Of a stretch of DNA of 64,000 bases, positions 17,694-64,000 are shown piece after piece. The stretch lies in assembly GCA_965216465.1 (NCBI GenBank), contig CBDCFW010000005.1, forward strand, positions 690,816-754,815. Reading direction: 5' to 3'. A program made the translations under genes and the position numbers. Numbering within the stretch: the stretch's first letter is position 1; the number at the start of each line of letters is the position of its first letter. Source of the stretch: Bacteroidia bacterium (lineage in GTDB: Bacteria; Bacteroidota; Bacteroidia; NS11-12g; UBA9320). Under the pieces are notes generated by a model. The model was not told where the DNA came from. It saw nothing but the letters and a program-made list of their open reading frames with translations, and ran no database searches.

Positions 17694-19326
17694 ATGAGAC
17701 TCTTCACCTTTAAAAATGCCTTAGTACTTTGCTTACTGGCTTTGATTTCGTGGAGCTTTAAAATTTCACAAAACAAGGTTGACCGCGATGAGATTATTGG
17801 TCAGACCGCACCAGCTGACATGCGCTTTGTTAAAGGAAAAGGAAACATCCCCTCTTTCTACATCGGTGTTTCTGAAGAGCCAAACATAAACTACGTCCTC
17901 TATCTTGAATGGCTCGAACGTGTATATGTAGACTATCCAGAGGTCTATGAGAAAGCCAAGCCGCATGTAGCCAATCAAAAAATTGCCTTTAACGACCCAT
18001 ACCTCGAATACCACATGGAGCACCCTGCTTTCGCGTATTACCCCAGTAACAGGGCTTAGTTGGAATCAAGTCAATCGGTATTTGCAATGGAAGACCGATC
18101 GAGTAAACGAAGACATTCTTATTAGACTAAAAGTCTTAGAAGAAGATGGTGGCCAAATGAATGAAGCTGTCTTCAACACTGAAACGTACATCTACGGTCA
18201 GGATGATGGAATTATCTATCGCAAACACAGACGTAATCAACTTCATTGGTCAGAAGGCGTGCTCTTTCCTTCGTTCAGATTACCCAGCGAAGCAGAATGG
18301 GAAATGCTTACAGAGGATAATAATGTTAATCAATCTCGTAGTTTTTATCCCTATGGGAAAGACTATTTCAGTTTGCGATGGTTAACAATATACAAGAAAC
18401 AAGACGAAGGCCCATCTTACTACAATTACTCAATCCCCAACTATAAATCTTATTGGAGATCGAATAAGCCTCCTGAAAATCAACAGAACAGAATTCACGG
18501 ACCTTGGTCTTCAGAACACCCTATCAATTTGTCAGGAAATGTTAAAGAATGGCTAATCGATTTTTATGGTGATGAGAAAATAACCCAATGGTCGAGTACC
18601 AAAGAAATGCTTAATCGCAATGGATTTAATGCTGAAATCAAGGATGATTCAACTGTTTATGACGAATATGGCATCATTAATCTAAAAGACTATTTAGGCA
18701 ACTTCCCCTTTAAGATTGGGGCCACTGAAATGGATGGCTCAGCCATGTGGGTAAAGCCTCCTGTTCCGTTTAGCCCTCTGTCTTACAGATATGCGGTTGT
18801 AGACTATAATTTGGGTCATGACACCCTTGGCATAATTTACACTTTCGATGAATTCTTCAAAACATTCAATACCAAGATCTACGATTACTATTTTGAAAAG
18901 AAGCTCCACGGGAATGGGCTAAATCCTAATTTTTTAACTTCTAAGTTTAACCACAGCTCTCATTACTACACCTATTCTAAATTAAACCAGGATTCTTTGA
19001 GGGCAATCGTAAGGCATTTTGCACTAGAGATGTGGAAGTCGATTCACGATGACAAATCCATTGGCGTTGTAGCTCACAATCATCAAATGCATGCTTGCTA
19101 TAAGTCTAAACGAGGTTATTTCATCAGGAAAGGAATGACTCAAGCGGCTCCAAGCTTTCTACCATATAATGATTCCCTACGCTTGGTGCGCGGCGGAGAT
19201 TGGAAAAACCCGGATTTTAACGCTCGGATGGCCATGCGTCCTGATAGTGCAGCCAACAATGTAGGTTTTAGATGTGTGCTTCCTTACACCTCAATGCCCG
19301 TTGAAAAACAATATAAAGTCAAATAA
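17694..19326 (+). pseudogene. SUMF1/FGE-sulfatase domain protein (GldJ/GldK-like), frameshifted at 18041-18044
   Basis: Removing one C from CCCC joins HPAFAYYP to VTGLSW; RLPSEAEWE, NLSGNVKEW, RGGDW, VGFRCV. Confidence 0.8.
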
Positions 19327-48815: not shown

Positions 48816-51188
48816 ATGCCTTTGTACTTCGACTACATGATTACGACATCAAAAAAACATACCAAACTGTTCAGCATTATTGTTTTTCTTTTTTTGGTAT
48901 TAGCTCAAAATCAGTCATTTGCACAAAAGGTGACCATACATTTCAATCAGCCGCTGTACTTAACAGAGGGTGCTCAAGAAGCAACTATTTCGGCTGTGTA
49001 TCACGATGGAATCCGCTGGTGGAAACAAACCGAATACAAAATTGTAACCGGTCAGAGCACATTTGAATGGGACCTCGATCTTGGTCTTGAACATTCTACA
49101 GAAGTTGTACTCAGTCTTGATCACTGCAAGACGAAATTCAAGCTCGGGCTGTGGTTATCTCCAAAAGACAATGTTACCGTTCATGCCCACGATGAAATAG
49201 TATGCAACAAACGTCCTTGTGCACCCGAATTCTTCAACAAACGTTACATTATTGAAGGAAAGAATGCCGACTTCCATAAAAAGTACGCCTACTATCACTA
49301 TTTGAACGACCGAGATTATGGCTCACAGAACAACCCCTATTATATTGGTTACAGCAGTCCGGCTCATGACAAAAAAGCACCAACCTTGGCGCACATCGAT
49401 CAAAAATTAGCCCTCCGGTTGGATAGTATAAATACTCATCTTCCAGGAAAGAATAACACCAAACTGCGACTGCTCTTACGCGATAAAGAACGCTACCATG
49501 CAGCAACTTCCATTCTAAATGAGGTGGGTCCAAACGCAACCATTGCTCGAAGTGAACGTCTTGACTCCGGTGAAGTGGCAGAATTGATTAAGAAGTATCA
49601 CCTTCTTGAGTCTGGAGAAGAATTTCTTTGGGAGTTTGTGAATTTCGCTTACGAGTTGCCGCTATTTCAAAAAGGCTCACGGCGTTACGGCTATCGGGAT
49701 AGAAGCTCAGTAATATTAGACTCTTTAGTAGAAAATGGGTTACTGGATGCACGGAAAGAAATTGAGCCTCTATACCAACACTGGTTGAATAATAAGAATC
49801 AGACCTTTTATCGATATAAAGATTCGATTGGTGATTTAGATCCTGCCTTAGGGTTTGCTTTTTGGGAGGATGAACAATTAAGTCTCGGAATGCATAAAGG
49901 TTATCAGAGCAACCTTAAATATTATCAATACTTGAAAGACTTGAAGCTTGACCCTAGAATTAAACGATACAAGGCCTTTAAGCGACTAACCAACATGCAA
50001 AACAACAGCATGTATCTTATGCGAAAGCCGGAATATCTGTCAGAAAGAGAGTGGAATAGTTTTACCTTATACTTTGGACTATCATTTGGGAAATCACTTG
50101 ATCGAGTTGAAGATATAGCAACTTCTATGTGTCCAGATCATCGAAAATTGCTCAATATTAATTATGGTGCACTTGCTTTTGAATGGATTGAAGACGATAC
50201 GAGTTTTCATCAGATGATGGAGAAATATAAAGGCAAGACTACGGTGCTTGTTGTGTTTCCTCCATACAGTTGGGGCTACCAGCATGAAGCTTTAGCTATG
50301 TATCAAAATTGGAGAAAGCTCCCTGTAATGAAGGATGTACAGTTTGTGAAACTCATTCGACAACGCAAGCGCGATGACTCAGACAACGACGTTCGAGATT
50401 ATGTTGACATGCTCTATCAATCAAATGAATTGGATGATACTTATTTGGTTAAAACGGATATCAATATATGTTTTGATCAGTATTTTCAGTGCAATGCAAT
50501 CGGACCATTTATGGTAATTGATCCGAATGGACACGCACTTCCTATAGAGAAAAGTCATTTAGGCAATGAATTTTATAATTTAAGGCGACCACGTTTAAAT
50601 ATAAATCCTCACCCGCCGCAAGAACAAGAAGTCGTTGTTGATGAAGATCTTCAATTAGGTTCGGGCTATGCTGGAGAGGAATACGAAATGGATGTGGCTA
50701 TTGAGGAAGGTGAAAGAGTATACTTTGACCCACCTAATTATAACCGCAATTATGGCCGGCGAGTTGAAGAAAAGCCAGCTTGGGAAGTGAAAGAAATTGA
50801 AGAAAAGACAGATGAACACCGTTCATTTAGTGCTATTGTCTCGCAGTATCAATCAAAAGAGCTGGTGTCGTTTGAATCTTCCAATTTTATTGAACAATTC
50901 TTTCCAAAAAATGAGGGCTGGTACGCATCACGGGGCTTTGGTTTCACTTATCTCACCAAAGAAAAACCACGAAACTTATACGCCCAATCTATTTGGACAA
51001 TAAGTGGCGACACACTTTTTACTTGTGAAGATGATGGAACCATAAAAGACAATTATTCGTTTAGCTATAATCCAAAAACGTTCATTCTTACCGTCAGCAA
51101 CGAAGAATACTATGGTGAATATCAAGTGATGATGAGCAGCGTTAGAGCCATCGTTTTAAAGAATATTAAATCAGAATTTAAACGCTAG
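48816..51188 (+). CDS. Large secreted hypothetical protein
   Basis: 790-aa ORF with signal peptide (start may be 48837); no family recognised with confidence. Confidence 0.75.
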   Translation: MPLYFDYMITTSKKHTKLFSIIVFLFLVLAQNQSFAQKVTIHFNQPLYLTEGAQEATISAVYHDGIRWWKQTEYKIVTGQSTFEWDLDLGLEHSTEVVLSLDHCKTKFKLGLWLSPKDNVTVHAHDEIVCNKRPCAPEFFNKRYIIEGKNADFHKKYAYYHYLNDRDYGSQNNPYYIGYSSPAHDKKAPTLAHIDQKLALRLDSINTHLPGKNNTKLRLLLRDKERYHAATSILNEVGPNATIARSERLDSGEVAELIKKYHLLESGEEFLWEFVNFAYELPLFQKGSRRYGYRDRSSVILDSLVENGLLDARKEIEPLYQHWLNNKNQTFYRYKDSIGDLDPALGFAFWEDEQLSLGMHKGYQSNLKYYQYLKDLKLDPRIKRYKAFKRLTNMQNNSMYLMRKPEYLSEREWNSFTLYFGLSFGKSLDRVEDIATSMCPDHRKLLNINYGALAFEWIEDDTSFHQMMEKYKGKTTVLVVFPPYSWGYQHEALAMYQNWRKLPVMKDVQFVKLIRQRKRDDSDNDVRDYVDMLYQSNELDDTYLVKTDINICFDQYFQCNAIGPFMVIDPNGHALPIEKSHLGNEFYNLRRPRLNINPHPPQEQEVVVDEDLQLGSGYAGEEYEMDVAIEEGERVYFDPPNYNRNYGRRVEEKPAWEVKEIEEKTDEHRSFSAIVSQYQSKELVSFESSNFIEQFFPKNEGWYASRGFGFTYLTKEKPRNLYAQSIWTISGDTLFTCEDDGTIKDNYSFSYNPKTFILTVSNEEYYGEYQVMMSSVRAIVLKNIKSEFKR

Positions 51189-51205
51189 CGCCAGCTTCCT
51201 GCTGG
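51184..51205 (-). repeat. REP-like palindrome family 3 (CCAGC-TGGAA-GCTGGCRCTAGC)
   Basis: Related copies at 51694-51720, 51727-51743 and 61113-61138. Confidence 0.65.
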
Positions 51206-51257
51206 AACTGCAATAAACTAACTTGTGCTTGCCTATGTAACATAAACCAACACGTTA

Positions 51258-51358
51258 ATTGCGGCGTTGGCCCGGTGGCTTAAGCACCGGACGACAAAAA
51301 CATCATACAGCGCTATTATAGCCTTCGATTTTTGCAGTACTTTTTCTAAAAAAGTGCG
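51258..51358 (+). repeat. Structured repeat family 1, copy A (short subtype, 20-bp internal deletion)
   Basis: ATTGCGGCGTTGGC...GCTATTATAGCCTTCGATTTTTGCAGTACTTTTTCTAAAAAAGTGCG. Confidence 0.9.
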
Positions 51359-51384
51359 TAAGAGAAAGAAAGAGATAAACCTAC

Positions 51385-51411
51385 TTCTGGTCCCTTACAG
51401 GAGACCAAGAA
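51385..51411 (+). repeat. Bulged hairpin family 2 (diverged copy)
   Basis: CTTCTGGTCCCTTACAGGAGACCAAGAA. Confidence 0.75.
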
Positions 51412-51467
51412 AAAGCTGAATTCTACATGAATTATATTTCGAGCCTACAACTTTGATTAAAACGTTT

Positions 51468-51622
51468 ATTGCGGCGTTGGCTTGAAGGCTATCAGCGGCG
51501 GCCCTGTGTGACGACGGACGGGGGTGTTTAGCTTAGAGGCGATGGAGTTAAAGAGCGACAGAAACACCCTGCAGCGCTATTATAGCCTTCGATTTTTGCA
51601 GTACTTTTTCTAAAAAAGTGCG
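51468..51622 (+). repeat. Structured repeat family 1, copy B (long subtype)
   Basis: Same 5' and 3' conserved blocks; inner GGGTGTTT/AAACACCC stem. Confidence 0.92.
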
Positions 51623-51640
51623 AAAGAGAAAATATGGATA

Positions 51641-51670
51641 CTTCAGGGTCCCTTACAGGAGACCCTGAAG
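51641..51670 (+). repeat. Bulged hairpin family 2
   Basis: CTTCAGGGTCCCTTACAGGAGACCCTGAAG. Confidence 0.85.
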
Positions 51671-51693
51671 ATGTCGAATGTTATGTTAAAATT

Positions 51694-51743
51694 TAGTACC
51701 AGCTGGAATCTGGCACCAGCATAAAATGGAAGCTGGCACTAGC
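51694..51743 (+). repeat. REP-like palindrome family 3, two copies
   Basis: TAGTACCAGCTGGAATCTGGCACCAGC and TGGAAGCTGGCACTAGC. Confidence 0.65.
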
Positions 51744-51810
51744 ATGTATTGGTACAATCAAAACAACCCTTAAAAACATTAACCCTATATTACACCACTA
51801 AAACTAAATT

Positions 51811-53292
51811 TTGGATATAAAACTTGTCATCCTTCTACTCTATGTTCTAATTCTATTAGGCATAGGCATTGTAGCTTCTCGTCGAGTAAGAAACATTTCG
51901 GATTTTTATGTGGGAGGAAAAAAGATCGGCTATTGGGCTGTAGCCTTTTCAGCACGTGCCACAGGAGAATCGGGTTGGCTGTTAATAGGACTAACCGGAA
52001 TGGGCGCCATGGCCGGATTGTCTGCCTACTGGGTGGTCGTCGGTGAGGTTCTTGGGGTTGCTATTTCGTGGTTTTTCATGGCCAAACCCTTTAAGCTTCT
52101 GTCCGATAAGTACGGCTCAATAACAGTTCCGGATTTTTTAGAAAGTCATTTCAAGTCTAAATCACACTTGCTTAGAGGACTAACTGCCTCCATCCTATCC
52201 ATTTTTGTTATCATCTATGTCAGCACTCAAATAGACGCTACGGGCATTGCCTTTGAAAGCATGATGAAGATGGACTATTATTATGGAGCTATTATCGGCT
52301 TTATAATTGTGCTGGTTTACATCTTCTTTGGTGGATTTGTAGCTGTAGTTTGGTCAGACCTATTTCAAGGATTGTTAATGTTCTTTGGGCTAATAATTCT
52401 GCCCATAATAATGATTATGCAGTTCGATGCACCGGTAAACATTGTAGATCAACTCAGCAGTATTGACCCCAAACTGATTCACCCATTTGGAGGTGAAAGT
52501 AGTGGATGGATGAATCTCTTTACCATTCTCGGTTTTTCGATGATAGGTCTAGGATTTTTAGGCTCACCTCAAGTTTATGTACGATTCATGTCGATTAAGA
52601 ATGTCGATTCGATACGAAAAGGACGCTGGGTTGCAATTTTGTTTACCTTATTGACCGATGCGGCGGCTGTATCTATTGGAATCTTAACACGCATTTACTT
52701 CACGGATTCAGGAATGGACGCTGAAGCTGTTTTAGGGGTTGGAGGCAAGCATGTATTAAGTCTCGCCACTGAAAACTTTTTACCGCTGACCATCACAGCA
52801 ATTTACATTGCCGTTGTACTCTCGGCGATCATGTCGACCGTAGATTCTTTACTCGTTTTGGCATCGAGTGCCATAACCCGAGATTTCTATCAGAAGATAT
52901 TTAGACCCAATGCTTCCGCAAAGCAACTAACCCGATTGTCCAGAACTGTGACAGTAATCATGGCAATGTTTGCTTTAGCAATTGCAATGGCCATTGCCTA
53001 TTTCAGTCCTGAAAGGCAGGTGTTTTGGCTGATTATTTTTGGTTGGAGCGGAATAGCCGCGTGTTTTTGTCCTGTGATTATCCTCTCACTCTTTTATAAG
53101 GGATACAGCGAGGCTGGAGCAATTGCATCCATCATAACTGGATTTGTGAGTGTTGTTTTGCTGAAATTTGTACTTCAACCCATGGAAGGCATTGGAAAAT
53201 ACATCGACAAACTCGACGTACTCGCACCGTCATTTGCGTTAGCGATTTTGGCAGGGGTAATTGCTTCTAAGCTATGGCCAAGAAGTTCGTAA
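51811..53292 (+). CDS. Sodium:solute (proline-type) symporter
   Basis: SARATGESGW, GGFVAVVWSDLFQG, LSAIMST; ~13 TM. Confidence 0.92.
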   Translation: MDIKLVILLLYVLILLGIGIVASRRVRNISDFYVGGKKIGYWAVAFSARATGESGWLLIGLTGMGAMAGLSAYWVVVGEVLGVAISWFFMAKPFKLLSDKYGSITVPDFLESHFKSKSHLLRGLTASILSIFVIIYVSTQIDATGIAFESMMKMDYYYGAIIGFIIVLVYIFFGGFVAVVWSDLFQGLLMFFGLIILPIIMIMQFDAPVNIVDQLSSIDPKLIHPFGGESSGWMNLFTILGFSMIGLGFLGSPQVYVRFMSIKNVDSIRKGRWVAILFTLLTDAAAVSIGILTRIYFTDSGMDAEAVLGVGGKHVLSLATENFLPLTITAIYIAVVLSAIMSTVDSLLVLASSAITRDFYQKIFRPNASAKQLTRLSRTVTVIMAMFALAIAMAIAYFSPERQVFWLIIFGWSGIAACFCPVIILSLFYKGYSEAGAIASIITGFVSVVLLKFVLQPMEGIGKYIDKLDVLAPSFALAILAGVIASKLWPRSS

Positions 53293-53338
53293 ATGTTTTG
53301 AAGTTCTCTCATAAGATTCAATATGAAGCAACACGCCA

Positions 53339-53460
53339 ATTGCGGCGTTGGCTTGAAGGCTATCGGCGGCGGCCCGGTGGCCAGGGCACCGGACGACAAA
53401 AACAGCTTGCCGGGCTATTATAGCCTTCGATTTTTGCAGTAATTTTTCTAAAAAAGTGCG
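53339..53460 (+). repeat. Structured repeat family 1, copy C (short subtype)
   Basis: Full 5' block, CCGGTG/CACCGG hairpin, conserved 3' block. Confidence 0.92.
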
Positions 53461-53565
53461 AAAGAAAGTAACAAATACCGCTCTTACGATCGCCAACAAT
53501 CTTTTACTCTAAAGGACATGCGACATATTAATAACTAACTACAGAGAGATGTTTGTTTAATGTTT

Positions 53566-53595
53566 CTTCAGGGTCCCTTGCAGGAGACCCTGAAG
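53566..53595 (+). repeat. Bulged hairpin family 2
   Basis: CTTCAGGGTCCCTTGCAGGAGACCCTGAAG. Confidence 0.85.
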
Positions 53596-53705
53596 ATGTT
53601 GCTCTTTCAATTCTCTCGAAGACCTCATTCCTAAAAAAAAAGAAGCCATTAATCAAATCAAAGAACGTCTATGTAACTTTTGAATGATTTCATCGTTTTA
53701 ACCAC

Positions 53706-55379
53706 ATGAAAACTATCAAACTAAAAACACTATTCATTCTAATAACGATTGGATTATCATTCCACGTTATGGGAATCAACGCTGCAAAGTATAGCGTTGA
53801 TCGATTTAAAAATGATGCTCCCAATTCAGTAGTTCTAGAACTCAATTTCGCCGAAGCGAAGGTGCTCAATGCAGAAGCAATTGAACAGTTAGCAGACCGA
53901 GAAATCTATCACATTGACCTAGTCTATACTGCTTATAAAGAAAATGCAGGATTCAACCAAGACCAACTCAACCAAACAAGGGTTAATCAACTAAAGTCGC
54001 TGCTTCCTAAACTCAGAACCTCAAATACTTCTTGGAGATTTATTGAGCAAACGCAAGCTCAGTCAAGAACAGAAGCTCAGAAACTTTTTCACGGATTTGT
54101 AATTCATTTCGGGGAGAATTTAGACTATTCTAACCTCAGTCAATTTTTAGCAGACTATCAAGAACCTTTTTTTGAGCAAAGCATAAGCAACAGTTCAAAT
54201 GAGCTCGTTGAATACAAGACTGGATCAAAAATCCATGTGCCAGCCAATGCAGTAACCTACTTAGATGGCACACCCGTAACAGGCGATTACACCTTGCAGT
54301 ACATAGAGTTCCGAAATCCAGCAGACATTGTGTATTCTGGCATTCCTATGACCTATAATTCCGGTCAAAAGGAGTACAATTTTAACTCTGTGGGAATGTA
54401 TGAAATCAGAGCAGAGCAAGATGGAAAAGAGTTAGCCCTTCAGAAGCCCATTACTGTAGATTTTAATTGTACTGAACAAGAAGCCGATGTAGACTTCTAC
54501 GAGCTTGACGACAATACCGGAGAGTGGAAGAAAAAGAGAGACATTCAATTTGAAAAAAAAGAAGCACAGGCGGAGCTTTTTGAAGCGGCACCACAAAAAA
54601 TTATTGCCAATATTGGTGGTGACGACGGTTCATATTCGTTTGAAGCTGGTGATTTAAAACTCGCATACAAATACAAGGTAAAAAATGACCTTGTTCATAT
54701 AACATTTTCAGATGGTTGGGAACAAGTCAAGACACAAATGGAAGTAGATAATGATGAAATCTTTGATATCATACAATATCACGACCCCAATACTGGCAAG
54801 GTTCGTATCAAATTAGAGGATCACAAAGCATTTACTGAATTTGTGAATAGAAGCTGGTTTGTTGATCTTGCCTTGGCCCAAATGAGAGGAAACGAAATAA
54901 ATTTTGAAGGAGAGCTTGATGCAAATATGGATGAACTATCAAGAACTTCATCCACGTTGCTTGCAGAAAGCAAAACGGACGCTACGCATATGTATCCCAA
55001 CTTGGTAAAAGGTTTAAATTCAGACAAGTTTGGGGTTTTTAATTGTGATCAGATCTATCGAATCAAGAATCTAGCAACCATTTCGCCAATGTATGTTGAT
55101 GCAGAGACAGGTAGAAAGATAACCAACGGAAAGGTGGCTTGCCTACTTGATTTGACTTACAATGGGTCTTTTAGTTTCAATCCCAACAGCATCACCTTTG
55201 ATGCAAAAGGTAGAAATGTAATCATCCTTTTCACTACGGATAAACAGACCTATGTACTAAGCGAATCGGAAGCTCAAAAAATTAATTTCTCAAATAATTA
55301 CAGACCCCAATTGTCAATGAAAAACATGACCGATGAACTGCAATCATCTAGCGACTTGTCGGAATACTTGAAATTATGA
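53706..55379 (+). CDS. Secreted hypothetical protein
   Basis: Signal peptide, 557 aa; upstream ECF-like TGTAAC...CGT (53672-53696). Confidence 0.75.
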   Translation: MKTIKLKTLFILITIGLSFHVMGINAAKYSVDRFKNDAPNSVVLELNFAEAKVLNAEAIEQLADREIYHIDLVYTAYKENAGFNQDQLNQTRVNQLKSLLPKLRTSNTSWRFIEQTQAQSRTEAQKLFHGFVIHFGENLDYSNLSQFLADYQEPFFEQSISNSSNELVEYKTGSKIHVPANAVTYLDGTPVTGDYTLQYIEFRNPADIVYSGIPMTYNSGQKEYNFNSVGMYEIRAEQDGKELALQKPITVDFNCTEQEADVDFYELDDNTGEWKKKRDIQFEKKEAQAELFEAAPQKIIANIGGDDGSYSFEAGDLKLAYKYKVKNDLVHITFSDGWEQVKTQMEVDNDEIFDIIQYHDPNTGKVRIKLEDHKAFTEFVNRSWFVDLALAQMRGNEINFEGELDANMDELSRTSSTLLAESKTDATHMYPNLVKGLNSDKFGVFNCDQIYRIKNLATISPMYVDAETGRKITNGKVACLLDLTYNGSFSFNPNSITFDAKGRNVIILFTTDKQTYVLSESEAQKINFSNNYRPQLSMKNMTDELQSSSDLSEYLKL

Positions 55380-55428
55380 AGCTTTGGCTTCTTTAGTTCA
55401 AGTCAATTTCCAATACCTTTGATACCCT

Positions 55429-55830
55429 ATGAATTCCATTTCAAAGTCAATTTGGATACTTTTTAGTGGATTATCGCTTTGGTTTTTTGCCTGCACTGGC
55501 ACTGAGAATAAGCAACACGAAAGACTAATAGGTTCAAGCCATACTTTTCTGTTTGAAGATGGTGAGCATGCTGATGAATATTACAACGATAGATTGGAGT
55601 TCATAAAGCCGTACAATAGTGAAAAACACGTTGGTGATACCTTGTTCATTACCACCTTAAGAAGGGTTAATTCTTGTGCCGAAACACAAGGCGACATCCA
55701 AATAAATGGAGACAGCATTATCCTATTAGATTACCAAATTGGAGACATAGCTTGTGCTTCAACCGATTTTCATAAGTTTGAATATGTGGTATTCGTTCCT
55801 CAAGATTCAAACTACATTATATCTTACTAG
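55429..55830 (+). CDS. Hypothetical lipoprotein
   Basis: Lipobox FFAC. Confidence 0.7.
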   Translation: MNSISKSIWILFSGLSLWFFACTGTENKQHERLIGSSHTFLFEDGEHADEYYNDRLEFIKPYNSEKHVGDTLFITTLRRVNSCAETQGDIQINGDSIILLDYQIGDIACASTDFHKFEYVVFVPQDSNYIISY

Positions 55831-55882
55831 TTCTAAAAGCATTCTTCGAATCTTATAATAGTCATATTCGATTCGACATGCA

Positions 55883-55897
55883 AATTGCGGCGTTGGC
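55883..55897 (+). repeat. Family 1 5'-block remnant (copy D)
   Basis: AATTGCGGCGTTGGC only. Confidence 0.7.
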
Positions 55898-55950
55898 ACG
55901 ATAGCTATTAACTGCTAAAGGACGAATGTTAACAGACAGTTATTCTATTT

Positions 55951-56100
55951 CGCACTTTTTTAGAAAAAGTACTGCAAAAATCAAAGGCTATAATAGCCCG
56001 GCATAGTGTTTCTGTCACACAAACCCGCCGCCTCTAAGCCAAACACCATCATCCATCATCGCTCTTGTCCGCCGCCGATAGCCTTCAAGCCAACGCCACA
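55951..56100 (-). repeat. Structured repeat family 1, copy E (long subtype)
   Basis: Reverse complement of both conserved blocks. Confidence 0.92.
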
Positions 56101-56181
56101 AATCCATATCCAAAGGAACCTCACATTCATCCATCTTGAAAATTTGCAAACTCGACTGCTTTCAATCCTTCCAGCATCAAC

Positions 56182-56212
56182 AAAAAAAAGTCCGGCCTCT
56201 CGACCGGACTTT
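56182..56212 (-). terminator. Rho-independent terminator
   Basis: AAAGTCCGG...CCGGACTTT with an A8 tract on the + strand. Confidence 0.8.
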
Positions 56213-56231
56213 ACTAAAAGCTAAGTTTATG

Positions 56232-59200
56232 TTATTGCTTTATAAGCTTCGTTCTCATGCGTTTTTGGTCTGATTGTATTTCTACAATGTACATCCCTTT
56301 ACTCGCATCAAGTACAAACTGGTGTTTGATTCCAGCGATGTTCATCGCATTGTAAACCACTTTACCATTAAGGTCAGTTACTACAATGTTTACATTGGAT
56401 AAGTTGGCCAAATCAACATTTACAACATTGCTTGTTGGGTTTGGATAAACAGTAACTCCTTCAAATACAATGTTGTCTCTTGCACTCGCTTTGCTAATGG
56501 TTACACATTCAGAAGTATCTGAACATTCACCTTTAGTCACAATTACTGCATAACTTCCATTGTCAGTAGCTACAAACTCTTGGCCTGTCGCACCATCGAT
56601 TGGAGCATTGCCATTATCGCAGTCAATCCATTGGTAAGTTGCAGTTTCATCATTTGCATTGATCTTAGGATCAGCAATTGAAACTGAGTTATCAAGGCTG
56701 GTAATCGTCAAGTTCAAGGTTACAACCGAGTCACATCCAGCTGCGTTAGTTAATGTAAAGCTAGGTGCATCAGTGCTTGAAGTATAAGTAACTCCATCGA
56801 TCCACGTGTAGCTGTTACATGCTTCAACAACATCAACTCCAGAAGTAGACTTATTGATTGTTAAATCAAGGTATACAATTGAATCACAACCATCTGCTGT
56901 TAAGTATCTTCTTAATGCGGTATTATTGCTTTCAGTATACGTAGTACCGTTAATCCATCTGTAGCTGTTGCAAGCAACAATTACATCAGTGCGCGATACC
57001 GATTTGTTGATGGTTAAATCAAGGGTTACAACTGAATCACAACCCAATGAGTTTGTTACGGTATGTGTTGCTGTGTTATTGCTTTCAGTATACTCAACAC
57101 CATCAATCCAAGTGTAAGCATCACAAGCGGTGATCTCATCAACTCCGAAAGTAGTTTTGTTAATGGTTAAGTCTAAAGTAACAATAGAATCACAACCAGA
57201 AACATTGGTTAAAGTATAAGTTGGAGTGTTGGTACTTGAAGTATAAGTAACACCATCAATCCAAGTGTATGATTCACATGCAGTAATTACATCAGTTGTT
57301 TCATCTGGACTAAGAATAGTAAGATCCAACTTCACAACTGAATCACAACCTGCTTCGGTAACGATGGTGTAAACGGAAGTGTTGTTGCTGAAAGTATAAG
57401 TAAATCCGTTGATCCAAGTATAGCTTCCACATGCAGTGATAACATCTGTGGTTGTTGACGAATTTCTAATGGTCAAATCCAAGGTAACTACAGAATCACA
57501 TCCTTTGCTAGAAGTTAATGTGTGAGTAGCTGTATTGTTGCTTGAAGTATAAGTTACTCCATCAATCCAAGTATAGCTAGCACAAGCTAAAATCTTATCT
57601 GTACTGGTTTGAGAATAGTTAATGGTCAATTCAAGTGTTACAATTGAATCACAACCATGAACAGTTTGATGCGTATCTTTAGCAATGTAGTTGCTTGAAG
57701 TATATGTTACACCGTTGGTCCAAGTATAGCTGTCACAAGCGGTGATTTCATCCGTAGTAAATACAGTTTCGTTAATAGTTAAGTCTAAGGTAACAATAGA
57801 GTCACAACCCACTGAATTGGTATACTTCATTGTAGCAGAATTGTTGCTCGCATAGTACGTAATTCCATCAATCCAAGTAAATGAATCACACGCTTCAGCT
57901 TCATAAGTGCTTGCACTTTCAGGAAGAATGGTCAAGTTCAAAGTAACAATAGAATCACAGCCGATGATGTTTGTAAACGTATCGGTAGCGGTGTTGTTGC
58001 TTGAAGTATATGTAATACCGTTTGTCCAAGTGAAGTTTCCACATTCAGTTACAACATCAATGCTTCCATTAATTGGCAAAATGGTTAAATCTAAAGTTAC
58101 AATAGAGTCGCAGCCGTTAACTGTAGCAAATGTGTCTTTTGCAGTATTGTTGTCTGCAAAATAGGTGATACCGTTTGTCCATGTATAGCGATCACAAGCT
58201 GTAATTAAATCCGTGCTAGTTGTCGCATTATTTACGGTTAAATCAAGTGTTACAATCGAATCGCAACCCGCAACATTTAAGTAAGTAAAAGTTGCAGTGT
58301 TGTTGCTTGTATAATACGTAACTCCATCAACCCAAGTGAAACTATCGCATGATGCAACCGTAAATGTGCTACCGTTTGACAAAATGGTTAGGTCTAAAGT
58401 TACTACAGAATCACAGCCATGGATGTTAGTGAAAGTATCAGTAGCCGTATTGTTTGAAGATGTATAAGTAACTCCGTTTGTCCAAGTGTAGCTATCGCAC
58501 GCAGATTGAACATCAGTGCTTTCGTTTGAAAGAATAGTCAAGTTCAAGGTTACAACTGAATCACAGCCTTGAGCACTGAAATAAGTGTTTGTCGCTGTGT
58601 TGTTTGAAGTGGTATACGTGATACCATCTGTCCAAGTATAGCTTCCACAAGAAGAGATAACATCAGTGCTTGATTTAGAGTAGTTCACGATTAGGTCAAG
58701 TGACACAATCGAATCACAACCAGCTGCATTCACAAAAGTATCTTTAGCTGTATTGTTTGAAGATGTGTAAGTTACTCCGTTTGTCCAAGTAAAGCTGTTG
58801 CATGCACGAACTGTTTCAGTTGAAGAAGTTGGATTTAAAATGGTTAAATCTAAGGTTACAACTGAGTCACAACCGTTAACGTTAGTTAATGTTTGAGTTG
58901 CAGTATTGTTTGAAGAAGTATAAGTGATTCCATCAATCCAAGTATAGCTTTCACATGCAGATGTAGTAAAAGTGCTTGAGTTTGAAAGAATAGTCAAATC
59001 TAAAGTTACTACAGAATCGCAACCTGCAGCGTTGGTGTAAGTTTTAGTAGCTGAGTTGTTGCTTTCGGTGTAGGTAATTCCATCTACCCAAGTATAGCTA
59101 TCACAGGCTGATACCGTAAATGTGCTAGAAGTAGAGTTGGTAATCGTTAAATTCAATCTCATGTAAAGGTCACAACCAGCTGCATTTACTAGTGTATCCA

Positions 59201-59813
59201 TTGCAGTGTTGTTACTTGCGTAATAGGTAACCCCGTTGGTCCAAGTAAAGCTATCACAAGCAGTTGTTGTGAATGTGCTCGAAGTTGGTGAGTTGATTGT
59301 AAGATCTAAAGTGATTACAGAATCACAACCATTCGCATTTGTAGTGGTGTACGTTGCTGAATTGTTTGAAGCAGTATAGGTTACTCCATCAATCCAAGTG
59401 TAGCTAACACAAGCAGAAATTACATCTGTGCTAGAAGTTGATTCATGGATGGTAAGGTTTAAAGTTACAACGGAATCACAACCGGCTGCATTCACTAAGG
59501 TGTGCGTTGCAGAGTTGTTGGATGTTGTGTAAGTAACCCCATCAATCCAAGTGTAGTCATCACAAGCAGTAACCACATCGGTACCTGAAGTAGGCTGATT
59601 AATGGTTAAGTTTAGTGTGATAACAGAGTCACAACCGGCTGCGTTCACTAAGGTGTCGGTAGCTGAGTTGTTCGAAGATGTGTAAGTTACGCCATCCATC
59701 CAGGTGTAACTTCCACATGAAACTTGTGTGTCGGTACTATAAGTAGTAACACACTGAGCTGAAAGCTTGAACATGCCCAAGCCCATCAGCAGTAGTAAAA
59801 AAAGATTTCTCAT
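56232..59813 (-). CDS. T9SS-secreted protein with 20 tandem ~51-aa Cys-paired repeats
   Basis: Unit ACDSYTWIDGVTYTSSNN...GCDSVVTLDLTI x20; VYPNP CTD; signal peptide from ATG 59813. Confidence 0.92.
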   Translation of the reverse strand: MRNLFLLLLMGLGMFKLSAQCVTTYSTDTQVSCGSYTWMDGVTYTSSNNSATDTLVNAAGCDSVITLNLTINQPTSGTDVVTACDDYTWIDGVTYTTSNNSATHTLVNAAGCDSVVTLNLTIHESTSSTDVISACVSYTWIDGVTYTASNNSATYTTTNANGCDSVITLDLTINSPTSSTFTTTACDSFTWTNGVTYYASNNTAMDTLVNAAGCDLYMRLNLTITNSTSSTFTVSACDSYTWVDGITYTESNNSATKTYTNAAGCDSVVTLDLTILSNSSTFTTSACESYTWIDGITYTSSNNTATQTLTNVNGCDSVVTLDLTILNPTSSTETVRACNSFTWTNGVTYTSSNNTAKDTFVNAAGCDSIVSLDLIVNYSKSSTDVISSCGSYTWTDGITYTTSNNTATNTYFSAQGCDSVVTLNLTILSNESTDVQSACDSYTWTNGVTYTSSNNTATDTFTNIHGCDSVVTLDLTILSNGSTFTVASCDSFTWVDGVTYYTSNNTATFTYLNVAGCDSIVTLDLTVNNATTSTDLITACDRYTWTNGITYFADNNTAKDTFATVNGCDSIVTLDLTILPINGSIDVVTECGNFTWTNGITYTSSNNTATDTFTNIIGCDSIVTLNLTILPESASTYEAEACDSFTWIDGITYYASNNSATMKYTNSVGCDSIVTLDLTINETVFTTDEITACDSYTWTNGVTYTSSNYIAKDTHQTVHGCDSIVTLELTINYSQTSTDKILACASYTWIDGVTYTSSNNTATHTLTSSKGCDSVVTLDLTIRNSSTTTDVITACGSYTWINGFTYTFSNNTSVYTIVTEAGCDSVVKLDLTILSPDETTDVITACESYTWIDGVTYTSSTNTPTYTLTNVSGCDSIVTLDLTINKTTFGVDEITACDAYTWIDGVEYTESNNTATHTVTNSLGCDSVVTLDLTINKSVSRTDVIVACNSYRWINGTTYTESNNTALRRYLTADGCDSIVYLDLTINKSTSGVDVVEACNSYTWIDGVTYTSSTDAPSFTLTNAAGCDSVVTLNLTITSLDNSVSIADPKINANDETATYQWIDCDNGNAPIDGATGQEFVATDNGSYAVIVTKGECSDTSECVTISKASARDNIVFEGVTVYPNPTSNVVNVDLANLSNVNIVVTDLNGKVVYNAMNIAGIKHQFVLDASKGMYIVEIQSDQKRMRTKLIKQ

Positions 59814-60134
59814 AAAAGTGTTTATCGATAAATTGTAATTAAAATAATTCATAGTTGGTTGCACATTGAACCTGTTCAATTTGTTGTAGTAGGACATGAA
59901 AATTACTTAGGAACTAAGTGCTTAGAGTTTTAAATGGTGAGTGATTCATAGTTTTCTTTCTGTAGAGTTATCGTGTTTTAAAATTTGGTGCGAATCTAGT
60001 CAAATAATCGATTCATTCTCAACAAGTAACAGTTATTTTTACCAGTGGTAATTAAATGTATTTAATAGGTATTTTTTGTGTCTTTTTGCGTAAAAAAATG
60101 CCATCTGAAGGTTGGTACTTTGTTTTATTTCTCT

Positions 60135-60284
60135 CGCACTTTTTTAGAAAAAGTACTGCAAAAATCGAAGGCTATAATAGCCCGGCAGGGTGCTTCTGTC
60201 TCACAGACCCCAACCCTTTAGGCCAAACACCCACATCCATCATCACACAATCCCACCGCAGATAGCCTTCAAGCCAACGCCGCA
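60135..60284 (-). repeat. Structured repeat family 1, copy F (long subtype)
   Basis: Reverse complement of both conserved blocks. Confidence 0.92.
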
Positions 60285-60401
60285 CATGCATAGCTGATTC
60301 AACTTTTGTAGTAAAAGGTGAACCCCTGTTGCATTGACCGCTACGAGTTCTCACGCGAGAGAACCCTGAGATAACGAATCTCTTTTTGTTATTTTTGAGT
60401 T

Positions 60402-60980
60402 ATGTATGAAAATTTCTTTGAGAATAGACTAATTACTAGCAGACCCAGCAGTGATAACGATTGGACACAATTAAATGAGGTGAACCCTCAATTCAATCAA
60501 GTAACCAAATCACTCTCAGGCAAACAGATAGAAAATGGGTTATTTACATTTATGTGGCCTGAAGAATCCAAGAAGTGGTCAAATCTTATGGCGTCTTATT
60601 TTAATTTTCAAAATATGAAGTTATTGTGTTTTGCTTTTGATTGGTCTGGAAAGGTTTTTGCTCTAAACTCTATTGACGATGGATTTATTTATTGCCTTGA
60701 CCCTGCAACCTTTGAGTGGTTTGAATTAGAAACTGGAGTTGAGGATTTTTTAAATATAGAATTAGTCGACTCTATAGAAGAGTTGTTGGAGTGGCCTAGA
60801 TTTAGAAATTTTATGAGAACAAATTCCTTACTAAACTTAAAGGACAATTACTGCGTTGGTTTTAAGAAACCTCTTTTTTTAGGAGGCGAGGATGATGATG
60901 AAAATTTTGAGCTTACAGAAATGGAAGTATATTGGGGATTGAATCACGAGCTCCTGTTGTCTATTTTAAAAAAGAAATAA
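60402..60980 (+). CDS. Tdi1/DUF1851 (GAD-like) polymorphic-toxin immunity protein
   Basis: FAFDWSG, CVGFKKPLFLGG.DD.ENFE...EVYW C-terminal motif. Confidence 0.75.
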   Translation: MYENFFENRLITSRPSSDNDWTQLNEVNPQFNQVTKSLSGKQIENGLFTFMWPEESKKWSNLMASYFNFQNMKLLCFAFDWSGKVFALNSIDDGFIYCLDPATFEWFELETGVEDFLNIELVDSIEELLEWPRFRNFMRTNSLLNLKDNYCVGFKKPLFLGGEDDDENFELTEMEVYWGLNHELLLSILKKK

Positions 60981-61038
60981 TTCCATTTAACATTTTAAGG
61001 TCCCTTTCAGCTGACCTCAAAGCGTTTGATTCGCGAAA

Positions 61039-61184
61039 ATTCCGGTGTTGACTTAAATGCTATCTGCAGCGAAGGAGCTTGTTGTGTGAAGATACGAGGA
61101 AGGTGTAGATAAAGCATCAGCTGGAAGTTGGCACTAACAAACCTTCGATTTTTGCAGTACTTTTTCTAAAAAAGTGCGAAAGAA
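61039..61184 (+). repeat. Structured repeat family 1, copy G (decayed 5' half, intact 3' block, family-3 palindrome inside)
   Basis: ATTCCGGTGTTGACTTAAATGCTATC ~ ATTGCGGCGTTGGCTTGAAGGCTATC; CCTTCGATTTTTGCAGTACTTTTTCTAAAAAAGTGCG at 61142-61178. Confidence 0.85.
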
Positions 61185-61302
61185 AAAGATAGACTTTGGC
61201 AGCGAGATTAACCAAACAACCAAACCGATTAAGTCCGATAATTCATTAATTTTACCCTCGTAAATTATGCAGATTAAAAATGCATAACATGCACCTCTTT
61301 TT

Positions 61303-62367
61303 ATGAAAACGAACAACAACACCTACGACCTACTTCTGCTATTTGATGATTTTATTCGTTACAACCGTCTCAACAAAAGAACGCTATCCGGCGGAAGAAA
61401 CTTAACCGCAGCTAGCAAGAACAACTACATTTATGTACGAAACCTTTTGGCTGACTTTTCCAAAAGCACCGGATTTGAGTTGCGGATTAAAGATTTATCG
61501 CGAAATAAAAGAACATTCAACCAAGAAAAGCGATACTACGAACGATTTTATTTAAAGTTTACAGACTACCTATTTAACGAGTGCAATCATTACGACAACT
61601 ATGTTGGGAACACGATCAAATTGCTCAAATCATTCTTCAATTGGGTAGTAAATAAGAAAGGAATTAATGCTGGAGGATTTTATAAGGATTTTTACCGCTG
61701 GAAAGAAGACATACAAATTGTTGCATTAAGTCCTGAACAACTAAATTTTTTAATCTTTAACGAAAATTTTGAAGAGCAATTAAATCCTAAGATGAAGTTC
61801 GTGAAAGACTTTTTTGTTTTTGGATGCACAACCGGATTGCGAATTAGTGATTTGAGATCAATTTCAGAAAACGACATTGAATATATCGGTAGAAAATGCT
61901 ATTTGCGGAAGGTCTCAAAGAAAACGCAGACCTTTACCCGAATCAAGCTTCCTGAATATGCAGTTAACATTGTTGAAAGAAGTGAATTTAAAAAAGGTAG
62001 ACTGTTTAATGAATTGAGTTTACACAACTTCAATAAGCACTTAAAAAACTTGATTGAACTAGCGGGTTGGGACTATGCTCATCCAAAAATTCGACACAAA
62101 CGCGGAAAGGCGGTAGAAGTTTTTAAGGATGATAAGCAGACTTCTTACCGCTTTTGTGATTTGATATCGTCACACACCATGCGAAGAACAGCAATAACAA
62201 CAATGTTAAACCTGGGTATGTCACATATCGATGTCAGAAGAATAAGTGGACATGCACCCAACAGTGCAGAGTTTTTTCGGTACGTAAAATTCAGCCAAGA
62301 AACCTTGGATTTAGAGTCGGATAAAGTGTTTCAAAAACTGAGTAAAAAACGGATGAAAAGACGCTGA
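61303..62367 (+). CDS. Tyrosine recombinase/integrase, no arm-binding domain
   Basis: GLRISD (R), SKKT (K), SHTMRR (HxxR), SGH, FRY (Y); 354 aa. Confidence 0.92.
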   Translation: MKTNNNTYDLLLLFDDFIRYNRLNKRTLSGGRNLTAASKNNYIYVRNLLADFSKSTGFELRIKDLSRNKRTFNQEKRYYERFYLKFTDYLFNECNHYDNYVGNTIKLLKSFFNWVVNKKGINAGGFYKDFYRWKEDIQIVALSPEQLNFLIFNENFEEQLNPKMKFVKDFFVFGCTTGLRISDLRSISENDIEYIGRKCYLRKVSKKTQTFTRIKLPEYAVNIVERSEFKKGRLFNELSLHNFNKHLKNLIELAGWDYAHPKIRHKRGKAVEVFKDDKQTSYRFCDLISSHTMRRTAITTMLNLGMSHIDVRRISGHAPNSAEFFRYVKFSQETLDLESDKVFQKLSKKRMKRR

Positions 62368-62451
62368 TTTTGCGCATTGCAGCACCCCGCAGTTGGACAT
62401 AAAACCTTAATTTACTGCACTTTACCAACATCTCATTACCATCCATTTGGG

Positions 62452-63960
62452 ATGCTGATTGAAGAACGGTCAATTTCTGGGGTGTCAAATGTGAGTAAAT
62501 TAACCCACTCTCCGAACCCTACTTACACCTTTGTAACTCAGTTACCGAATGGTGATATTCAGTGGACAAAACACGCTTGGAAAGGCGGCGGTGTATCGCA
62601 AGAAGTATACACTGAAAATTGTCGAGTAGTGTGGAACGATCCATTGGGTGTAGGCGGTACCCGAGCACATGCAGGACTATCGAGTCAAACCTATTCGTCC
62701 ATTTGGAATATAGAATATCGTATCACCACAGATGTATCTCAGACCAATTATGGGTATCGTGTAATTGGCGGTTCATCTGGCCTAACAGGAATAGCAGTAC
62801 AGGCTGGCGACCAAGCCGTTGTAGAACGATTGAATGGAATTATTTATCTTTACATCATCAGAGCCAACGGAACACGAATAGACATTGTAAATTTCGCAGA
62901 ATCCTATGCAGATATGCCTTTGCGAGCGGCATACTACTGTGATATTGCATCGGCAACCAACGTCCTCACCATGGATTTGGATTTCTATGGCCCCAATGGG
63001 TATCGATTTGGGTTTAATGGTTATGAAAATGAACCAAAAGTAGCTGGAGAAGGAAGTGTTATTGATTTTGGGGCTAGAATATATGACTCAAGGCTAGGAA
63101 GGTTTCATAGCACAGATCCGTATTTTAAGATGTTGCCAACATTCAGCACCTATGGTTATGCTATCAGTAATCCAGTATTGATGAAAGATGGAAATGGTAT
63201 GGGGCCCATACCATTTCGCTTTAAAGAATTTCTAAGCGATGATTCATATTATTTTACTGGTCTTCTAGCAGGAATCGGAGATGGCCTCGTTGAAAGCGTT
63301 GATATGATGCTTGGTGTAGTGGAAGCCAAAGATGCTTGGAATCCAACCGCAGGTCTATTTTATACTGCACGTGGTGCTGAGATTCGTGATCAACATATTG
63401 AATTTGGAAAACTTGCAATTAATTTAATGACTGACGAGGAACTCCAGAAGGAGGTTTATAACTCGCTAAAGACAGAATTTGGAGACTGGTGGGACGAAAC
63501 TACTTTTGACGGTACAACAGCAGAAGCGGGATATAATCATGGCAAGATAATCTTTGAAGGCGTTGCAGCAATTATTGGAGTATCTGAACTTAACTATTTA
63601 ATGAAGACTGGACAGTTCTCGGTCAGGGGCCTTGCTAAAATTGCCAGAGCTAGGTATCATAAGATTATAAGTACAATAGACGATGAGATTGTTGGATTGA
63701 AGACCCTTGAAGAAAAGGCTAGAAGAGCTTATGACATTAGACACGAAGCAAGAATCGTTTCAAGAGAAGCATCCGGAAGAATTAATAGTATAATTGCGAA
63801 AACGAGAGATATGATTAGATATGGGAAAACAGATGGTCCTTCATTTGACGATTTGTTTAAAAAGCATAAAGATAATGGTTTGTCAGATGATGAGGCATAT
63901 GAGAAAATCATAGAAAGTGCCAAGAAGACTAGCACAGTGTTTGACAAATTAGCGGAGTAA
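62452..63960 (+). CDS. Headless Rhs-associated core + C-terminal toxin module
   Basis: HYHPFG|M, YRFGFNGYE, DFGARIYDSRLGRFHSTDP, NPVLMKDGNG cleavage-type motif; no Rhs repeat body; start uncertain (TTG 62377 or ATG 62452). Confidence 0.85.
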   Translation: MLIEERSISGVSNVSKLTHSPNPTYTFVTQLPNGDIQWTKHAWKGGGVSQEVYTENCRVVWNDPLGVGGTRAHAGLSSQTYSSIWNIEYRITTDVSQTNYGYRVIGGSSGLTGIAVQAGDQAVVERLNGIIYLYIIRANGTRIDIVNFAESYADMPLRAAYYCDIASATNVLTMDLDFYGPNGYRFGFNGYENEPKVAGEGSVIDFGARIYDSRLGRFHSTDPYFKMLPTFSTYGYAISNPVLMKDGNGMGPIPFRFKEFLSDDSYYFTGLLAGIGDGLVESVDMMLGVVEAKDAWNPTAGLFYTARGAEIRDQHIEFGKLAINLMTDEELQKEVYNSLKTEFGDWWDETTFDGTTAEAGYNHGKIIFEGVAAIIGVSELNYLMKTGQFSVRGLAKIARARYHKIISTIDDEIVGLKTLEEKARRAYDIRHEARIVSREASGRINSIIAKTRDMIRYGKTDGPSFDDLFKKHKDNGLSDDEAYEKIIESAKKTSTVFDKLAE

Positions 63961-64000
63961 TGAAAATTGAAAGGCATTTTAACAGGTTAACTTTGCAACT
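63960..64000 (+). CDS. Start of a putative immunity protein (truncated by window edge)
   Basis: TAATG stop/start overlap; MKIERHFNRLTLQ... open to the edge. Confidence 0.5.
   Translation, partial: MKIERHFNRLTLQ

Follow-up and report, generated by a model that had tools for sequence, protein, structure and literature searches.

A tyrosine recombinase abutting a headless Rhs toxin tip in a Bacteroidia genome and its probable part in site-specific tip shuffling

Systems that rearrange gene segments, such as the pilV and phage tail-fibre shufflons, the inversion systems of Bacteroides and the integrons, are well established. Polymorphic toxins, Rhs proteins among them, are believed to diversify slowly, through RecA-dependent displacement of their tips. 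Classical orphan modules of Rhs and CdiA, thought to be moved by homologous recombination, lie downstream of the full gene and co-directional with it, with core portions of variable length. The sfx sites of the R64 shufflon consist of a conserved core and one conserved arm, the other arm being variable, according to the accessible part of the source (10.1101/2024.10.25.620183). The rAID-1 acquired interbacterial defence clusters of Bacteroidales were described in 2019; in the accessible part of that report they are recognized by a recombinase at least 44% identical to BF9343_RS08045 (10.1101/471110). The available text of a later paper treats the mechanism by which rAID-1 arrays form as still unknown in 2025 (PMC12247911), and the accessible part of another already noted recombinases beside polyimmunity loci in 2012 (PMC3482391). 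Here, we analyzed a 64,000-nucleotide stretch of a Bacteroidia genome (the window), which runs to the very end of contig C5 and at that end encodes a tyrosine recombinase followed directly by a headless Rhs toxin tip, tipA. An earlier note on the window had read the break at the YxPFG codons of the tip as a site at which the adjacent recombinase inverts, excises or integrates tips. Comparison with related loci supports this reading by association, a shared motif and rearranged junctions, and we assign a probability of about 0.65 to a dedicated site-specific system that shuffles Rhs tips.

The recombinase, the predicted site and the tip occupy the end of the window on the forward strand:

61303-62367, + strand: tyrosine recombinase open reading frame (ORF), 354 aa, intact, PF00589
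62368-62434, + strand: recombinase-proximal "head", a non-coding flank delimited by alignments
62435-62459, + strand: predicted core recombination site with left arm ATTACCATC, 7-nt spacer CATTTGG and right arm GATGCTGAT, encoding (H)YHPFGML
62377-63960, + strand: headless Rhs tip ORF tipA, 527 aa
62437-62454, + strand: tipA motif YHPFGM
62455-62994, + strand: conserved insert of tipA, about 190 aa
62995-63021, + strand: tipA motif NGYRFGFNG
63004-63201, + strand: Rhs-associated core of tipA, TIGR03696
63076-63105, + strand: tipA motif RIYDSRLGRF
63181-63204, + strand: MKDGNGMG with the cleavage-type motif DGNG, at the usual place of the Rhs cleavage motif
63205-63957, + strand: variable toxin domain of tipA, 250 aa
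63960-64000, + strand: start of immA, a presumed immunity gene, of which 41 nt precede the contig end

The recombinase was encoded by a single copy (one match in the genome). It matched only the general catalytic model PF00589 (E 1.7e-07, 31.6 bits with a cut-off of 27.1), and no arm-binding domain was detected in it by the domain-model search; PF00589 was also matched by 24 of 24 homologues. Residues R180, K207, H291, R294, H317, and Y327 were invariant in the alignment of 24 homologues and make up an intact catalytic R-K-H-R-H/W-Y set, which together with the family-model match places the protein among the tyrosine recombinases. With the XerA/integron-integrase model NF040815, it scored 32.4 bits versus a cut-off of 220 bits, which speaks against an IntI-type integrase.

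The ORF of tipA starts 10 nt past the recombinase stop codon, and the Rhs tip homology (YHPFGM) begins 75 nt after the recombinase gene. The protein reads ...TSHYHPFGM, and just 20 codons are open before YHPFGM in the window. Neither the ORFs nor the Pfam matches of the window included a YD/Rhs body upstream of the tip, so that the window ORF lacks a YD shell; the genes upstream of the recombinase encode a Tdi1-like immunity protein and a repeat protein sorted by the type IX secretion system (T9SS). TIGR03696 (Rhs_assc_core) matched tipA residues 210-275 with 38.7 bits against a cut-off of 32.5, and it was also matched by tip2, an orphan tip on contig C6 of the same genome. Profile searches of the toxin domain of tipA against Pfam and NCBIfam gave no matching family. 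A DPxGL-type sequence is the canonical Rhs autoproteolysis motif at the border between core and toxin; in this genome the border motifs vary, being KDGNGM in tipA, DFRGL in tip2, and DIEGA in a further tip, tipB. The stop codon of tipA and the start codon that follows it share bases (GAGTAATGAAA, 63957-63962, TAATG), and the immA gene opened there is 94 aa long on C6 (locus L009, 7686-7970). The earlier note had described an intact, arm-less recombinase ending at 62367 and, without an Rhs body, a headless tip with core motifs, a DxxG cleavage-type motif, a variable C-terminus, and a TAATG-coupled ORF; all of these features were recovered at the places it gave, and the homology break it put at 62420-62450 was mapped to 62429-62441. 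The recombinase and the tip ORF share one reading frame with a single TGA stop codon between them (62365-62377), and in both loci of genome G064 (L028, L029) the tip ORF overlaps the recombinase stop codon by 4 nt, which suggests that recombinase and tip are co-transcribed.

In layout, the locus resembles the R64/IncI shufflon (Rci, sfx, pilV): the tyrosine recombinase gene stands at the far end of alternative 3' segments, and the sites are in frame, so that inversion would alter the C-terminus of one long protein. In contrast to R64, the target here is an antibacterial Rhs toxin, each segment has its own immunity gene, and the predicted site coincides with a conserved protein motif, so that foreign tips fit; direct-site exchanges also seem to occur here, whereas Rci is described as inversion-only. 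The rAID-1 clusters, as presented in the accessible parts of their descriptions, share with our locus the Bacteroidota host and a tyrosine recombinase that borders an array of genes from toxin-immunity systems, and they have been called integron-like. According to the same parts, rAID-1 arrays are composed of orphan immunity genes, and the motifs between these genes are conserved; in our locus, by contrast, whole toxin tips make up the cassettes (complete tip ORFs of about 300-530 aa plus small downstream genes), and the site lies inside the Rhs coding sequence.

Integrons are resembled by a divergent layout, as in locus L066 with the recombinase and five tandem tips reading away from it, by a first site that abuts the recombinase gene like attI, and by cassettes that seem to be gained and lost between direct sites. 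They differ in that the predicted site looks like a simple, short, duplex-type core of about 25 bp in coding DNA rather than a folded attC, and in that the window recombinase falls far below the integron-integrase cut-off. With classical Rhs/CdiA orphan modules, the locus shares headless tip-immunity modules that lie near a full gene and have part of its core-encoding DNA; here, however, the boundary does not vary, a dedicated recombinase lies right against it, and the tips lying beside the recombinase (parked tips) face the full gene. A literature search among openly readable papers gave no description of a recombinase swapping Rhs tips, and the words "Rhs" and "toxin" are both absent from the main text of Milman et al. 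2023 (PMC9881135). The principle is thus the known one of shufflons and integrons; new are the target, a polymorphic toxin with its immunity gene, and a site inside a conserved protein motif.

We analyzed the neighbourhoods of recombinase homologues. At E <= 1e-20, 9 of the 66 family genomes had a homologue, and at E <= 1e-60, 23 of the 191 genomes of the order were positive, with identities of 38-55%. The genome set comprised 28 loci: the window, 24 stretches from genomes of the order and family, and three from named metagenome-assembled genomes. An Rhs core was present within 23 of them, and in 17 the 5' end of a headless tip faced the recombinase (10 downstream and co-directional, 7 upstream and divergent). 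Four of the five loci without a core (L030, L038, L052, L053, L065) were cut by a contig end beside the recombinase. In a metagenome scan restricted to the best 80 loci of 406 recombinase relatives, the tip 5' end faced the recombinase in 62 loci: downstream and co-directional in 39, upstream and divergent in 20, and on both sides in 3. The remaining 18 included 16 with less than 320 nt of flank on one side and 2 with cores 1.4-5.8 kb off. Tip-abutting homologues of both sets were 38-57% identical to the window recombinase.

Rhs cores were encoded in 22 of the 23 recombinase-positive genomes versus 66 of the 191 genomes overall. Wherever a full-length Rhs gene was on the same contig, it was opposite in orientation to the recombinase-proximal tips (L025, L054, L064, L051, L152, L072, L084, L088/L090, L130), and this is the geometry that inversion needs. 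The recombinase family contains 1831 protein clusters at E <= 1e-20, all under generic names, with Xanthocytophaga flava and a Sphingobacteriaceae isolate among the carriers that are named; it is best explained as a large Bacteroidota family dedicated to Rhs toxin-tip cassettes.

The boundary of the tips is sharp. The genome contains only four Rhs cores, namely tipA in the window and, on C6, tip2 and the full-length genes A and B. The homology of all four copies starts at ATCCATTTGGGATG, at the Y-P-F-G-M codons, and the recombinase-proximal copy additionally retains ATTAC just before it. Upstream, the window head is unrelated to the Rhs body save for a decayed remnant of the last 20 nt or so of the body (ACATCTCATTAC versus ACCATCTCCGATTAC). 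Tips of the same locus were compared over 137 sites (86 pairs, 39 loci), with position 0 set at the first base of the Pro codon. Their identity was about 0.35 upstream (the background between loci being 0.28), climbed between positions -9 and 0, amounted to 0.87-0.95 over positions 0 to +17, and then decayed slowly; the homology thus starts within about 9 nt of the P-F-G codons. In the recombinase-less arrays of G024, G027, and G143, orphan-tip homology extends well upstream of YPFG, the pattern expected from displacement by homologous recombination.

The family consensus, gATTACTAT CCn TTY GGG ATG nTr ATG CC, can be read as 9-nt inverted arms around a 7-nt spacer (ATTACTATC, CnTTYGG, GATGnTAAT) in which 7 of the 8 specified arm positions are complementary; the window site (62435-62459) has 7 of 9 arm positions complementary. 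Arms, spacer, and crossover point are predictions from aligned DNA. The tip-side arm and spacer were always retained, and the Rhs body has the left arm as well; ATTACTAT was matched at 7 or more of its 8 positions in 18 of 31 downstream, 10 of 21 upstream, and 7 of 28 internal heads. A conserved core with one conserved arm and a variable other arm is the asymmetry of shufflon sites, and it resembles that of sfx in the accessible part of its description (10.1101/2024.10.25.620183). No flanking direct repeats of the site were found upstream of the recombinase in the window.

Several observations concern the heads. A motif, (A)GTTCTTTGAA, lies 6-60 nt upstream of the site in many metagenome heads (L075, L095, L099, L109, L120, L144) and is absent from the window head; it may act as a promoter element or bind an accessory factor. 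Some heads have a box resembling the Bacteroidetes -7 box, the consensus of which we take to be TAnnTTTG, and also an ATG that lies in frame, 12-14 codons ahead of the site. Transcription of the parked tips, together with their immunity genes, is therefore possible. In L055 (7212-11426, - strand), a tip is fused in frame to an ORF of about 1100 aa whose end looks TPR-like rather than Rhs-like; the joint reads ...SYSNIG|SSIPELQY, the other tips of that genome reading YYPPFG|SSIPELQY, and the fusion may have arisen by recombination at a secondary site.

Rearranged junctions were found by comparing contigs that came from different samples and had recombinase genes 95.6-100% identical. L140 has one tip (1784 nt) upstream of the recombinase and divergent from it and another downstream, whereas in L134 the first of these tips (99.94% identical) is downstream; this is the difference predicted for inversion of the recombinase segment between two flanking inverted sites. 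In the five-contig cluster to which both belong, four different tips were joined to each of two heads, all at an invariant 20-mer, CCGTTCGGGATGGTAATGCC. L125 and L132 share a 2943-nt cassette that is 100% identical and is joined to different heads inside CCGTTTGGGATGGTAATGCC, the head being recombinase-proximal in L132 and another one in L125. Moreover, L132 equals L125 plus a 5.0-kb block between two direct sites, and the block, which has its own recombinase copy and two tips, looks like the footprint of an excision or integration. L126 and L129 are identical over 3576 nt up to the second site and have different tips beyond it. The joints share 20-26 nt while the head-side DNA is unrelated, which fits site-specific recombination better than homologous recombination.

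The two recombinase copies of L132 (3926-5020, + strand; 7282-8064, - strand) are 95.6% identical and lie on one 8-kb contig with tips between and around them. A possible cassette loss between L097 and L098 was set aside, because only 170 nt of the second tip were available, and it is suggestive at most.

These comparisons also bear on what the earlier note had expected of a true recombination site. Rhs enrichment next to recombinase homologues emerged at 17 of 28 genome and 62 of 80 metagenome loci, and the homologues, far from showing no Rhs association, are strongly tied to tips. A short DNA motif is indeed shared: the other tips and the full-length Rhs genes of this genome carry it at the same place, contrary to the alternative that no common site exists at other tips. 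Rearranged junctions appeared in related loci, where near-identical contigs break inside the 20-nt core.

In the genome under study, tipA was found both on the recombinase flank (C5) and on an Rhs body (C6). Positions 62441-64000 of the window are identical to C6:1285500-1287059, with 0 differences in 1560 nt. The C6 copy is the 3' part of full-length Rhs gene A (about 4170 aa), which carries DUF6443, a BNR propeller, and YD-type repeats (the shell). Past gene A follow immA, tip2 with imm2 and then, on the opposite strand, immB and full-length gene B with the third tip, tipB; C6 terminates inside gene B. The C6 tail corresponds to gene A in reverse complement. Bodies A and B have 0 substitutions over about 6.8 kb, up to and just beyond the junction, followed by 14 substitutions in the next 500 nt or so; they also differ by three single-base homopolymer indels, which break the frame of gene B. 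The assembly thus contains both body|tipA and body|tipB, and these are probably one Rhs body caught by the assembler in two inversion states. The step in substitutions, which is hard to explain with two old copies, would follow easily if a long-read assembler had met a single body that was linked with tipA in part of the molecules and with tipB in the rest.

The end of C5 and the tail of C6 together give the order recombinase, tipA-immA, tip2-imm2 and then, facing these, immB-tipB-body. This is the layout of a contiguous locus from the same genus, L025, and C5 and C6 are therefore thought to abut, in which case the segment of about 7 kb between body and recombinase would exist in at least two orientations. 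Sites were located on C6 at 1285500 (+), 1287591 (+), and 1292530 (-), and at the C5 end (+), so that, as in a shufflon, the recombinase stands beside alternative 3' segments with sites in both orientations. The same layout was found in L025, L051, L152, L072, L084, and L088. In L025, the bases at about 18300-18420 are given as N; they surround the site in the full-length G025 gene.

A domain of about 190 aa is present between YPFGM and RFGFNG in this genome (window 62455-62994; gene A, tip2, and gene B on L009). In other loci the linker between the two motifs is 16-18 residues long. The insert provides about 590 nt of homology among the three tips of the genome.

Four public sequencing runs from one study hold the stretch and were assessed as low-depth Logan contigs. 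In three of the four runs, contigs continue from 64000 through 531 nt to the next site at 62441, giving the order tipA-immA-tip2, as on C6. Contigs of runs X1 and X2 (window 62954-63014) represent tip variants that are absent from the assembly and diverge, for example, after 62993 and before 62956, which indicates that the sampled population has more tips than the three assembled. The well-assembled relative G054, considered as a second case of a duplicated tip, was rejected because its recombinase-proximal tip is unique in that genome.

According to the mechanism that we propose, the site would be some 25 bp of coding DNA, namely the codons for the conserved (D)YYPFGM with which the Rhs-associated core begins. 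Recombination of two sites would move a tip with its immunity gene between heads, a head being either a full-length Rhs body or a short recombinase flank. Inverted sites would lead to inversion, as in a shufflon, and change the tip-immunity pair fused to the body; direct sites would lead to excision or integration of a cassette, as in an integron. In this genome, the likely layout is one Rhs body and the recombinase at opposite ends of the segment of about 7 kb with tipA-immA, tip2-imm2, and immB-tipB; flipping the whole segment or part of it would put tipA, tip2, or tipB on the body, and the window would represent the state with tipA parked beside the recombinase. The exchanges are presumably catalysed by the window recombinase, and any regulation of tip switching is likewise presumed.

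The recombinase-proximal heads may serve as expression sites, a flip of the recombinase segment selecting which parked tip and immunity gene are transcribed. More tentatively, and below what we would call probable, the recombinase family may have taken the conserved DYYPFGM codons, a near-palindrome, as its site, so that foreign tip-immunity pairs would arrive as ready cassettes to be captured, parked, and later placed on the shell by inversion or integration; the system would then be shufflon and integron in one, serving antibacterial weapons. Immunity arrays of the rAID type might be built along the same lines.

Several findings weigh against tip shuffling by the recombinase. None of the 30 listed run pieces bridges 62382-62508 (87 more pieces exist beyond those listed). 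In two of the four runs, contigs specific for tipA exceeded the recombinase contigs 2- to 3-fold in word depth (6.1 versus 2-3.4; 5.9 versus about 1-2), as would follow from two real copies of tipA; in a third run the ratio was about 1:1, and word depth is not copy number. The metagenome loci are not independent, 32 of the 80 belonging to 12 clusters of near-identical recombinases. Multi-tip arrays also occur without this recombinase (G024, G027, G143), and in G054 the recombinase-proximal tip is on another contig than the full-length Rhs genes. Tandem arrays with direct sites are stable enough to assemble (L033, L066, L069), while a freely excising enzyme would erode them. Finally, the tips of this genome share about 590 nt after the site (81-97% identity), so that RecA-dependent inversion is also possible. 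Even with two tipA copies, tipA was copied to or from the recombinase-proximal position with its breakpoint at the site, and the main conclusion is independent of copy number.

Among the rival explanations, one sees a selfish element: the recombinase would be the integrase of a small element that, with one or two tip cassettes, targets YPFG-coding Rhs DNA, and the apparent switch would be the trace of an insertion. The 5.0-kb direct-site block by which L132 exceeds L125 looks like an integrated circle, having two tips and a recombinase with 95.6% identity to the resident copy; from genus to genus, the recombinase stands in different genomic surroundings, and the recombinase-plus-tip module of G054 is unlinked from the full-length genes. 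Such an element should, however, leave a co-directional full-length gene upstream of the recombinase, and none was found, the full-length genes always being convergent with the recombinase-proximal tips. No other mobility genes, site direct repeats upstream of the recombinase, or tRNA gene were found in the window either. We consider a selfish element rather unlikely; since it would use the same chemistry and site, it differs from tip shuffling in purpose and not in mechanism.

A second rival, which we regard as unlikely, is that ordinary homologous recombination swaps the tips, with the recombinase being a passenger linked to them or serving some other function. It draws on the 590 nt shared by the tips of this genome, on the orphan-tip arrays without recombinase, and on the run contigs, which show no enzyme-linked event. 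For this genome alone it is possible because of that shared stretch, but the exchange here falls in the first 85 nt of it. Most other loci share just a short stretch, and the reassorted joints fall within the 20-nt core, next to which the head-side DNA is unrelated; 137 sites have the left boundary in common, whereas the recombinase-less arrays have homology upstream of it. Nor would a passenger stay 75-110 nt from the site across dozens of unrelated genomic contexts. The third rival, a defensive immunity store in which the recombinase collects immunity genes and the tips are carried undeployed, recalls the tyrosine recombinase, orphan-immunity arrays, and repeated intergenic motifs of rAID-1 in the accessible parts of its descriptions (10.1101/471110; PMC12247911) and could claim the Tdi1-like orphan gene directly upstream of the window recombinase, but it is very improbable, as the cassettes retain long open tip ORFs with core, cleavage-type motif, and toxin domain, the site is within the toxin reading frame, where a body can join, and the parked tip is identical to the tip on a full-length gene.

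If tips are indeed shuffled by a dedicated recombinase, toxin switching would be fast, reversible, and programmable, the same start codons of spare tips in these bacteria would be explained, and variation of the arsenal within a clone would become directly testable. A class of loci annotated as "integrase" beside "RHS repeat-associated core domain protein" would gain a function, and a natural pair of recombinase and site working in frame inside a protein-coding sequence would be at hand. It may also have implications for the origin of the rAID immunity arrays, as yet unsolved.

Upstream of the recombinase, two further features were identified in the window:

60402-60980, + strand: orphan Tdi1-like immunity gene, PF08906, E 5.9e-08
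60128-60171 and 61142-61185: 44-nt inverted repeat I1, 98% complementary, bracketing the Tdi1-like gene

The first encodes a Tdi1 C-terminal domain (immunity of the type VI secretion system type; weak DUF2625) and stands directly upstream of the recombinase without an adjacent toxin gene. Neither tRNA genes nor Rfam matches, intergenic repeats included, were found within 50000-64000, which means that the usual attachment site of an island is missing nearby; an ordinary island integrase at a tRNA gene was ruled out on these grounds. A family of intergenic repeats of 45-168 nt (window 51312-61185) has six copies within 10 kb upstream of the recombinase and 0 elsewhere in the genome. These repeats were considered as a second cassette array and rejected, the genes between them being ordinary (e.g., a sodium:solute symporter). 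One sequencing-run contig links 56069 with 61142 on opposite strands, with a side of 33 nt. The gene at 56232-59897 (- strand) encodes a 1221-aa protein with a T9SS C-terminal sorting domain and about 20 tandem Cys-containing repeats of 51 aa (153 nt).

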